From the IMG/VR virus record IMGVR_UViG_2778261179_000010: 5,858 bases of DNA. One strand, 5' to 3'. The notes beneath the pieces are model-generated. The model saw nothing but the letters and a program-made list of their open reading frames with translations, was not told where the DNA came from and searched no databases. Positions within the stretch are counted from its first letter, which is position 1. Every line of letters starts with the position of its first letter. Below are positions 3,572-5,622 of this stretch, piece after piece. This stretch comes from a virus (lineage: Duplodnaviria; Heunggongvirae; Uroviricota; Caudoviricetes). Both the position numbers and the translations under genes were made by a program.

Positions 3572-3604
3572 AAGTCACCGGAGGAGTTCAAACTCCGGTG
3601 ACTT
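3572..3604. repeat. Perfect inverted repeat / stem-loop (AAGTCACCGGAG - 9 nt - CTCCGGTGACTT), 12-bp stem
   Basis: Seen directly in the sequence, in the intergenic region between the HEPN-cassette stop (3674) and the ylcH-like ORF. No T-run follows on either strand, so it is not a classic intrinsic terminator; it may be an operator, an RNA structure or a module boundary. Confidence 0.5.
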
Positions 3605-3673
3605 AATTATGACAAGTTGATTATTGAAAATCAAAAGTCATTTAAACAATAATGATACCCAGCAAGAGATTTC

Positions 3674-4075
3674 TTATTTTAACTCATAGATCAGACAGTC
3701 AACGATTTCTAAACCATTTACCATAGAATTAGAAACGCGAACTTTACCATCGTTGACTCTAGCAAATCCTTTTAACATTTTATAAACAAAAGCTGAATCC
3801 CCCTTAGCCTCAATTGCTTCTAATGGTATCGGCTTATACTTTTTTGATATGCTATTTCTATTTATCTCACTGATTTTTCTATATATTTCTGCCGGCCCAC
3901 GTTCTGAGAAGTCACTGATAACTAAAATATATCTCCAAGATAGATCTGGGTAATAAAACCACATTGCAGCATCAATAGTTAAATTCTGTAACTTGAGTTT
4001 TTTTAACAAAAATTGACCTGAGAATTCCATATCTTTTGTCAACTCTCTGCCGATTACCAGTGTGCTTTTACCCAT
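3674..4075 (-). CDS. Hypothetical protein, 133 aa, second gene of the HEPN cassette (candidate cognate partner)
   Basis: Track ORF. The ATG at 4075 has a GGAG Shine-Dalgarno about 10 nt upstream and lies 22 nt inside the 3' end of the upstream HEPN gene. AT-rich codon usage like its neighbour. I see no nucleotidyltransferase (GS...DxD) or other recognisable motif. Confidence 0.6.
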   Translation of the reverse strand: MGKSTLVIGRELTKDMEFSGQFLLKKLKLQNLTIDAAMWFYYPDLSWRYILVISDFSERGPAEIYRKISEINRNSISKKYKPIPLEAIEAKGDSAFVYKMLKGFARVNDGKVRVSNSMVNGLEIVDCLIYELK

Positions 4076-4470
4076 TTCAAAACTCCAGAATTTTGGTCAC
4101 CTACAGCATCAAACAATTGTTCGGCCATAGCTTTACTTATGTTATTGTCGTATCTAAATTGCTCGCTCCAGTCTTTAACGACCGACCAGTTAATCTCCAA
4201 CGAAACATCATTTTTTGCGTCAGCAATCAAAATTTGATGTAAGTTGGCAATTTTGAGAAGTTGCGACAAATCATGAGTATATGAATCATTTACGACTTTT
4301 TTGTTTGGAAACTCATGTTGTAAAAATGACTTGGCAATACAGGCCTTCAATGCACATTCAACTGCATACCCACAAAGATAATATGCACCATGAAAAAAGC
4401 CATGATCAAGCAAGCATTTGGCCTCATTAAGCCTAGTGTCAGATAATGCTTCAAGGTCGTTTTTATTCAT
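4054..4470 (-). CDS. HEPN-domain-like protein, 138 aa (candidate toxin/RNase or nucleotide-binding component)
   Basis: Track ORF. The N-terminal helix pair LNEAKCLLDHGFFHGAYYLCGYAVECALKACIAK, the HDLSQLLK segment and C-terminal FRYD fit the classic HEPN four-helix signature. No obvious Shine-Dalgarno. The region is markedly AT-rich relative to the flanking prophage genes. Confidence 0.62.
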   Translation of the reverse strand: MNKNDLEALSDTRLNEAKCLLDHGFFHGAYYLCGYAVECALKACIAKSFLQHEFPNKKVVNDSYTHDLSQLLKIANLHQILIADAKNDVSLEINWSVVKDWSEQFRYDNNISKAMAEQLFDAVGDQNSGVLKWVKAHW

Positions 4471-4715
4471 ACAATTATAACTTGAATTATCCTAATTTTT
4501 ATGATTATACCCTTATCAGGTATGATGTAGGAACTGAAAACAATATTGGATATCATTTTCGGTATTTCTCTGCAAATTCCAGCCCACAGGATCTCGGTGT
4601 ACAATCTGTCGCTGATCGCGCAAATTTAGGGTCAATCACTTCATTTTTTGCATCAAACCCTCACTAACATCGAACGATTATAGTACAAGTAGTGTTCTTG
4701 ACTTCTCATTAAACC
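4471..4715 (-). promoter_or_regulatory. AT-rich promoter region of the HEPN cassette with two perfect TATAAT hexamers on the - strand (4509..4504 and 4682..4677)
   Basis: About 300-nt intergenic region between the ant-like gene stop and the HEPN ATG. The proximal TATAAT is about 34 nt upstream of the ATG. The matching -35 elements are weak (for example AAGTCA). Confidence 0.35.
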
Positions 4716-4769
4716 GTCAGCATTCAATTAATTACAAAATACTAGCGGCATTTCTCTCCCGCAACTTTA

Positions 4770-5378
4770 TTACAGCCGTTCAGAACGTAAATGCGTCAAT
4801 ACTCGACTCCACTTATCATCCTGCCACGGCCGGAATTTTACATGTGCCGTTTCTCTGGCAAGGATTGCCTGTGCCTTATTGAGTATCCGGGGATATTCTT
4901 GTTCGATTGAAGTGAAGCGACCGGCTTCGCGGTGTTCTGCTACCTGAAGAAGCGGAGTGACGTTTTGGCAAGCGGTTAACATTGTGTCACTTGCCCGCCA
5001 TAACCAAGCAAGTGTGCAAAGTTCGTTATCAGTGAATTGTTTTGTGATTGGGGATTGTTGAATTTCTCGATCGAGAATATCCAGCACCCAGCGGCGGAAT
5101 TCTTTGGCCACAGGAGTGCGGGCGAACATGGCGATCAGATGGGCGCCACGGAGGGAGAAAATGCGAGTCTTCTTACGATAATTTCCTGAGGTCGTTGATT
5201 CGACGACCTGAGACATTCCGTCAGTAAACTCATCAATATTTTTGTTGTAGATGTCGGTTACTGCTTTGGTGCTGGCATATTTTAATGCTGCCGCCAATTC
5301 TTTGCTGGTAAACCAGATCTGGTTGTTGTGATTTATAGGAGTGAATTTTACATCGCGGAATGCGAGCTGAGTGACCAT
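4770..5378 (-). CDS. Phage antirepressor-like protein (Bro-N / AntA / P22 Ant N-terminal-type domain; Roi-like), about 202 aa
   Basis: Track ORF 4770..5615 begins at a TTG. The domain signature (LAFRDVKFTPINHNNQIWFTSKELAAALKY ... TRIFSLRGAHLIAMFARTPVAKEFRRWVLDIL) starts right after the ATG at 5378, so that start is preferred. The alternative ATG at 5513 cannot be excluded. Confidence 0.6.
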   Translation of the reverse strand: MVTQLAFRDVKFTPINHNNQIWFTSKELAAALKYASTKAVTDIYNKNIDEFTDGMSQVVESTTSGNYRKKTRIFSLRGAHLIAMFARTPVAKEFRRWVLDILDREIQQSPITKQFTDNELCTLAWLWRASDTMLTACQNVTPLLQVAEHREAGRFTSIEQEYPRILNKAQAILARETAHVKFRPWQDDKWSRVLTHLRSERL

Positions 5379-5540: not shown

Positions 5541-5562
5541 TAAAAAAACCGCGAACGCGGTT
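5541..5562 (-). terminator. Small GC hairpin (ACCGC-GAAC-GCGGT) followed on the - strand by TTTTTTTA; candidate intrinsic terminator or attenuator
   Basis: Seen directly. The stem is short (5-7 bp) but the T-run has 7 T's. It lies about 160 nt upstream of the preferred ant-like start. Confidence 0.45.
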
Positions 5563-5622
5563 ATGCGTCGTTTTGATGTCCGGGACGCCAATCCCGTGTG
5601 CCGATTTTGCGGCAACGCACAG

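Follow-up and report, generated by a model that had tools for sequence, protein, structure and literature searches.

What does a 133-aa ORF contribute when it begins inside the 3′ end of a HEPN gene, and could its product hold that HEPN protein in check? The question arose from a stretch of viral DNA of 5,858 nt, referred to here in its entirety as the window, in which an initial annotation had described the ORF as an orphan partner of the HEPN protein and suggested a new type of antitoxin, sensor or effector. The gene pair and its junction comprise the following features.

3674..4075, minus strand: partner gene, 133 aa (ORF call and family alignments)
4054..4470, minus strand: HEPN gene, 138 aa, HEPN-T (PF05168), AF0298/UPF0332-like subgroup
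4054..4075, minus strand: 22-nt out-of-frame overlap of the HEPN 3′ end and the partner 5′ end (ORF coordinates)
4083..4086, minus strand: putative Shine-Dalgarno-like element GGAG within the HEPN coding sequence (read from the sequence)

The partner is a real gene of a large, unnamed family

The partner starts out of frame within the HEPN coding region, at an ATG (4075-4073, minus strand) near its 3′ end; the GGAG element (4086-4083) precedes this ATG with a spacing of 7 nt. RefSeq lists the partner as a hypothetical protein (WP_000520500.1, 100% identity in E. coli O26:H11 11368) and the HEPN gene of the same strain as a ‘HEPN domain-containing protein’ (WP_001038620.1). The ORF first called at 3674-4075 was confirmed as a minus-strand gene of 133 aa that has kept its length, start position and motifs in different phyla, and the alpha/beta fold predicted for it was recovered in an AF2 model as one compact domain (pLDDT 89.3). 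Its description as lysine-rich holds to the extent of a mild enrichment (14/133 residues, 10.5%; net charge +5) and no further.

For identification of relatives, an exhaustive profile search was run over 1.84 billion cluster representatives (50%-identity clusters), which returned 798 representatives at E<=1e-3, of which 120 reached E<=1e-10. The length was 125-140 aa for nearly all of them, and they came from many bacterial phyla, so the protein is no orphan. A word-indexed search gave just 32 relatives, from Enterobacteriaceae and Acinetobacter. Family alignments revealed the motifs AAxWFY...W(R/K)L, GPxxxY and (I/V)RFxxNxINGxxIEDAYIYR. W39, G60 and Y130 are invariant across the family and L12, G20, L27, W47, Y65, R113 and D126 nearly so; the conserved residues found in the window partner are W39, W47, G60, Y65, R113, N116, N120, D126 and Y130. 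Judged from this conservation, the partner ORF is real, far beyond chance. The reading as a spurious, non-translated ORF overlapping the HEPN end, which had the absent annotation as its only point, is ruled out by conservation (798 clusters of homologues with a conserved length, plus a start position and an SD-like GGAG that are kept across relatives), by the confident AF2 model and by a partner ORF that stays unbroken even at loci with a disrupted HEPN gene, and we give it practically no weight.

The statement that no recognised family motif is present agreed with our library searches: the window partner matched nothing in Pfam, NCBIfam or PADLOC, and its sole library match was phrog_5760, annotated as ‘unknown function’. 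Nor did any of 124 family members match an entry in Pfam or PADLOC. Sequence and profile searches of the PDB with the partner gave nothing meaningful (best match, pyruvate oxidase, E 0.13). The structural search recommended in the initial annotation, run on the predicted model as Foldseek against the PDB, gave no significant match. Most type II antitoxins carry a DNA-binding domain; no such domain (HTH, RHH, AbrB or similar) was detected by Pfam in the 124 family members. One protein from the eukprot set (P0015, 178 aa) shares 99% identity with the E. coli partner across 77% of its own length and is most likely bacterial contamination of the eukaryotic dataset.

The partner is an obligate companion of this HEPN type

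Co-occurrence of the two genes, which had been proposed as a check, was analysed from both sides. The partner-anchored scan, with one genome per species and an 18-sequence query alignment, yielded 80 loci, which were distributed over Acidobacteriota, Chloroflexota, Desulfobacterota, Chlorobi, Nitrospirota, Planctomycetota, Deinococcus, Proteobacteria and one Aenigmatarchaeota MAG; 3 of the 80 lay at a contig edge. A HEPN homologue or its remnant was found directly upstream on the same strand in 76 of the 77 informative loci. Conversely, in the HEPN-anchored scan of 80 metagenome loci the partner was present wherever downstream room existed. Both genes were also present on all 42 related IMG/VR viral contigs; megablast of the INPHARED phage collection gave no match, whereas the IMG/VR contigs do have the cassette. 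Even in Catalinimonas and a Woeseiaceae MAG, whose HEPN homologues are distant, an overlapping gene clearly belonging to the partner family follows. The linkage was thus borne out, and the partner is an obligate companion of this type of HEPN protein in hosts that range from E. coli with its prophages to bacteria of the soil.

The genes overlap in 152 of 153 distinct intact pairs, and the overlap is exactly 22 nt in 130 of the 153, from many phyla, which suggests coupled and roughly stoichiometric synthesis of the two proteins. No third conserved gene accompanies them: apart from antisense shadow ORFs over the pair, no neighbour family occurred in more than 5 of 160 loci, and a motif-based search for minimal nucleotidyltransferase (MNT) genes near partner-family members found 0 in 85 loci. 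HEPN and partner are a self-contained two-gene cassette in varied contexts. [quoted passage not shown]

Several loci depart from the simple layout. At L149 (2501-3700), HEPN, partner, a HEPN C-terminal remnant and a second partner copy follow in that order, which suggests tandem duplication and then toxin loss. At L013 (2602-3402) and L077 (2593-3399), HEPN and partner form a single ORF of 267-269 aa, through natural fusion or as an artefact of a frameshift. The Candidatus Aenigmatarchaeota MAG (L019, 1000-1796) carries an intact pair with the 22-nt overlap, which reflects either cross-domain transfer or a binning contaminant.

The HEPN gene is disrupted more often than the partner gene

The HEPN protein scored above the gathering threshold of Pfam PF05168, and its four-helix up-down HEPN fold is present. 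The RNase motif Rx4-6H is absent from the window HEPN sequence. For AF0298-group HEPN proteins an alternative RNase site has been proposed in place of Rx4-6H (PMC3710099). Little or no variation is seen at R13, E38, K42, H66, R106 and Y107, and the arrangement of the invariant R106-Y107 and H66 fits that alternative site. The HEPN profile matched none of the PDB sequences. The protein has a net charge of -4, complementary to the +5 of the partner.

Among the 77 informative partner-anchored loci, 13 combined a full-length partner with a broken HEPN gene, through in-frame TAG/TAA codons (5 nonsense loci: L015, L020, L032, L050, L070), frameshifts (4: L023, L036, L053, L074) or survival of a C-terminal remnant only or deletion (4: L028, L045, L057, L065). 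An aberrant partner was found in 2 of 69 HEPN-anchored loci (L109, L123). HEPN thus decays more often than its partner (Fisher exact p=0.006), in a comparison that spans two different collections, mostly of MAGs and metagenome contigs, in which assembly errors may add frameshift cases. This asymmetry fits a HEPN protein that would be the costly component of the pair.

The premature HEPN stops of L020, L070 and L095 fall at about codons 48-50, just past the conserved ‘ACIAK’ segment, and L015, L032 and L050 also have independent in-frame TAG/TAA codons in otherwise well-conserved HEPN genes. The clustered stops may reflect recurrent C-to-T changes at CAA/CAG Gln codons.

Median identity to the window proteins was 24% for the partner versus 49% for HEPN, showing that the partner diverges faster, and the divergence of the two was correlated (r=0.64). 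Faster change in one protein, in step with the other, would be expected from the usual antitoxin and toxin pattern.

The partner lacks the catalytic features of minimal nucleotidyltransferases

The initial annotation had failed to detect the GS-x(9-13)-DxD signature of an MNT antitoxin, and our scan for G[SG]-x(8-14)-DxD in the window partner was likewise negative. In the AF2 model, strand 34-42 passes through a 3-residue turn directly into strand 46-53 with no GS helix between them. The strand equivalent to MNT strand 2 reads S-W-R-Y-I-L-V and contains the nearly invariant W47; hhalign placed a gap opposite ‘RARGDY’ and aligned W47-R48 to the DxD positions. Strand 88-91, where the third carboxylate was sought, has no acidic residue conserved across the family. 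At the level of profiles, 0 of 124 family members matched PF01909 or PF18765 at E<=0.1, no MNT appeared in the PDB profile search with the partner, and hhalign of the partner family against an MNT alignment gave a probability of 0.27% (E 0.23). That alignment, assembled from 2rff relatives together with 1wot and 5yep fragments, is narrow and draws mostly on Sulfolobales; a profile of wider scope could perform better. AMPylation of the toxin is unlikely because every nucleotidyltransferase catalytic motif (GS helix, carboxylates) is absent.

The folds closest to the partner model were nonetheless nucleotidyltransferases and RelA/SpoT synthetases, none of them significant by Foldseek against the PDB. 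In the model, the order of secondary-structure elements is that of an MNT minus the GS helix, and for this reason the partner may be a degenerate, catalytically dead MNT descendant, a proposal whose chances we put slightly below even. The wider scenario, in which such a descendant took HEPN neutralisation from an enzymatic mode (type VII, by AMPylation) to a stoichiometric one (type II-like, by binding) and the result serves as a hitherto unrecognised two-gene abortive-infection defence of EHEC prophages, appears doubtful as a whole.

The pair is carried in a variable slot of a DLP12-like prophage

A segment of a DLP12-like lambdoid prophage in E. coli O26:H11 strain 11368, integrated beside a tRNA-Arg gene (annotated next to intD), is identical to the window, whose sequence also turns up in many O26 and O103 STEC genomes. 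Of 5426 complete E. coli genomes, 287 carry a 1-kb stretch with both genes, in each case in the chromosome, and strains of O26 and O103 give the top matches. Reading along the minus strand, the isrK and C4 RNAs come first, then a P22AR/Bro-N antirepressor-like gene, HEPN, the 133-aa ORF, a 33-aa ORF and ybcN (NinB-like), followed by ninE, ybcO, rusA, ylcG and quuD. Within this backbone the pair lies in a segment of different composition.

3638..4769, no strand: low-GC cargo cassette, about 1.1 kb (from the composition and homology break; approximate bounds)

The cassette, with a GC content of 32-38% versus 50-54% in the flanks, consists of both genes and about 300 nt of AT-rich upstream DNA between the antirepressor-like gene and the ybcN block. 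Homology to K-12-type DLP12 ends near window position 3637, about 37 nt past the partner stop codon. A simple scan for sigma-70-like promoters in the minus-strand DNA ahead of the HEPN gene was negative. In other strains the slot is bounded by the 33-aa ORF/ybcN on one side and an antirepressor or recombinase gene on the other, and the cargo is unrelated; the antirepressor-ybcN slot looks like a cargo hotspot. Two other E. coli prophages carry in it a 169-aa hypothetical protein (WP_000990010.1; L208 1248-1757) and an alpha/beta hydrolase (L209 1501-2544). The low GC content, the variable slot and the occurrence in 287 of 5426 E. coli genomes support mobility of the cassette.

Comparison with known HEPN systems

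In the HepT/MntA modules of Shewanella (SO_3166/3165), Aphanizomenon and Legionella, MntA AMPylates HepT, which defines a type VII TA system (PMC7641770, PMC11586414). The HEPN protein there belongs to DUF86, whereas the one studied here is HEPN-T (PF05168, AF0298-like) without Rx4-6H. The gene order mntA-hepT is reversed here, with HEPN first. The partner has no significant sequence or profile similarity to MNT and, without GS, DxD or the GS helix, would be an implausible AMPylating enzyme.

The solved HEPN-T proteins 1ufb, 2hsb and 1wol probably have MNT partners, a pairing reportedly described by Anantharaman in 2013; 2rff, 1ylq and 1wot are MNT structures. In contrast to these archaeal and thermophile pairs (PF05168 with PF01909), the partner described here has none of the sequence-level features of MNT.

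RnlA-RnlB and LsoA-LsoB consist of a HEPN RNase toxin and a downstream protein antitoxin that inhibits it by binding (PMC8266594). The pair resembles them in the proposed direct binding, the toxin-first order and the anti-phage association on mobile DNA. RnlA, however, is a large multidomain protein with the canonical HEPN motif, whereas the HEPN protein here is small, and the likeness of the partner to RnlB is one of proposed mechanism, the family searches having detected no homology between them.

Further HEPN nucleases belong to prophage-encoded defences and are accessory cargo of temperate-phage genomes, which is the likeness to the present pair. HepS and RemAIN occupy Gifsy-1 accessory slots in lambdoid prophages, RemAIN comprising the HEPN nuclease RemN, a small immunity protein RemI and, as three genes in total, an ATPase (PMC13043305); in S. 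aureus, prophages encode the HEPN defence Tha (PMC11087260). HepS acts alone and has the canonical R-x4-H, whereas the present pair has two genes and lacks Rx4-6H, and the RemAIN genes (840, 309 and 663 bp) differ from it in size. Membership of RemAIN or HepS was set aside on gene number and sizes rather than sequence comparison. All 20 HEPN relatives tested matched the PADLOC model PDC-M28A, remotely (E 1.8e-7 to 7.5e-12), and 0 of 124 partner-family members matched any PDC-M28 component. PDC-M28 was therefore rejected as the identity of the pair and represents a related HEPN protein with a different partner.

No description of the HEPN-partner pair was found in the literature searched or in curated libraries. 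We regard it as a HEPN TA/defence-like module in which an unnamed, non-catalytic and possibly MNT-derived family stands in for the usual MNT partner. Because HEPN proteins are already known with many partners, this is a solid lead and not a surprise. It means that in a HEPN-T subfamily of hundreds of clusters in many phyla, the place of MNT is held by an uncharacterised protein unnamed in curated libraries. The family is large, strictly linked, experimentally tractable and present in the prophage of an important pathogen. Characterising the pair would give annotation pipelines a new antitoxin or immunity family, now a ‘hypothetical protein’ in those 287 E. coli genomes, and possibly a compact prophage-borne defence module of about 0.8 kb. 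It would also test whether AF0298-type HEPN proteins without Rx4-6H are RNases, and show whether a pseudo-nucleotidyltransferase neutralises HEPN by binding alone.

A proposed HEPN-inhibitor cassette and alternative explanations

With a probability of roughly 0.6, the pair is a horizontally mobile, TA-like HEPN-inhibitor cassette carried as low-GC prophage cargo, in which neutralisation would proceed by binding and not by AMPylation. The potential for harm would lie with HEPN, presumably an RNase in which R106 and H66 serve instead of Rx4-6H. The partner would be made from the HEPN mRNA through the conserved 22-nt overlapping start and would keep HEPN inactive by direct protein-protein contact, as RnlB does with RnlA. 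The cassette would travel as cargo of the variable antirepressor-ybcN slot in the DLP12-like prophage of EHEC O26/O103, and HEPN could be released by turnover of the partner (addiction or stress) or by a phage trigger (abortive infection). By analogy with RnlB, and given the complementary charges, inhibition through direct binding appears the most economical model. The lack of Rx4-6H, the partner without a recognisable DNA-binding domain and the toxin-first order are sequence features that speak against a TA-like reading. A defence role is plausible because of the prophage setting and the precedents of HepS, RemAIN and Tha. HEPN toxicity, its neutralisation by binding, the anti-phage or addiction role and the MNT descent of the partner are what we infer. 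Of the roles first suggested for the partner, novelty was supported in the form of an unnamed family with obligate HEPN linkage, and the function would be antitoxin-like.

Alternatively, the pair could be an abortive-infection system of two genes in which the partner mainly senses phage or confers specificity; its complex with HEPN would be inert up to the point where a phage product binds or displaces the partner and so frees the RNase. This possibility, which we consider unlikely but worth attention, partly overlaps the TA-like reading and differs from it in the trigger, phage sensing as opposed to antitoxin lability. A prophage accessory slot of the kind that houses HepS and RemAIN in Gifsy-1 is consistent with it, as are the 42 of 42 related viral contigs with both genes, the remote match of HEPN to the defence candidate PDC-M28A, and a partner that evolves as fast as an arms-race component would. 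However, most relatives reside in ordinary chromosomal contexts of environmental bacteria without recurrent defence neighbours, and the partner itself matches no PADLOC model.

Returning to inhibition by binding, the conserved residues that could form the interface also lend themselves to a catalytic interpretation. With a non-canonical site made of R113, N116, N120, D126 and Y130, the partner might be an active enzyme that modifies HEPN covalently or makes or degrades a small-molecule signal. These polar residues are near-invariant across phyla and lie in the C-terminal hairpin motif RFxxNxINGxxIEDAYIY, and the nearest folds are nucleotidyltransferases and RelA/SpoT synthetases. But no family resemblance is significant, the GS motif with its helix and the DxD carboxylates are all missing with W47-R48 in the DxD positions, and the hairpin residues could equally be a binding interface, which makes an enzyme improbable in our estimation.

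A slightly lower likelihood still is given to a pair outside any conflict system, with HEPN as a non-catalytic nucleotide or RNA binder and the partner as an RNA- or ribosome-associated adaptor in phage or cell regulation. The invariance of R106 and H66 in the proposed alternative RNase arrangement, the patchy and mobile distribution with low GC and varied genomic contexts, and the recurrent recent HEPN nonsense mutations with the partner kept, as fits a costly gene, all argue against it.

Other features of the window

The surroundings of the cassette contain an inverted repeat and two RNA genes.

3572..3604, no strand: inverted repeat, perfect over 12 bp, 9-nt loop; 70 nt past the partner stop codon
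5430-5517, minus strand: C4 antisense RNA (Rfam, 82.5 bits)
5542-5614, minus strand: isrK Hfq-binding sRNA (Rfam, 64.1 bits)

The inverted repeat is situated between the partner stop codon and the 33-aa ORF, outside the cassette and in backbone common to K-12 DLP12. The 126 nt around it have a folding z-score of -4.1, and no U tract adjoins it on either strand; it could be a candidate transcript-end or stabilising hairpin. The C4 and isrK RNAs lie just upstream of the P22AR antirepressor-like gene, a layout that we take to resemble P1/P7-type c4-ant immunity or Salmonella isrK-antQ. RefSeq places the antirepressor-like gene at 4770-5378, whereas the mechanical ORF of 281 aa runs from 5615 to 4770; the N-terminal part of the latter is probably noncoding because it crosses the C4/isrK RNAs. 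A porin gene on the plus strand (248-1390), named ompC in RefSeq, occupies the nmpC position of DLP12 opposite the Q antiterminator gene, and the DNA immediately preceding it is very rich in AT (31% GC).
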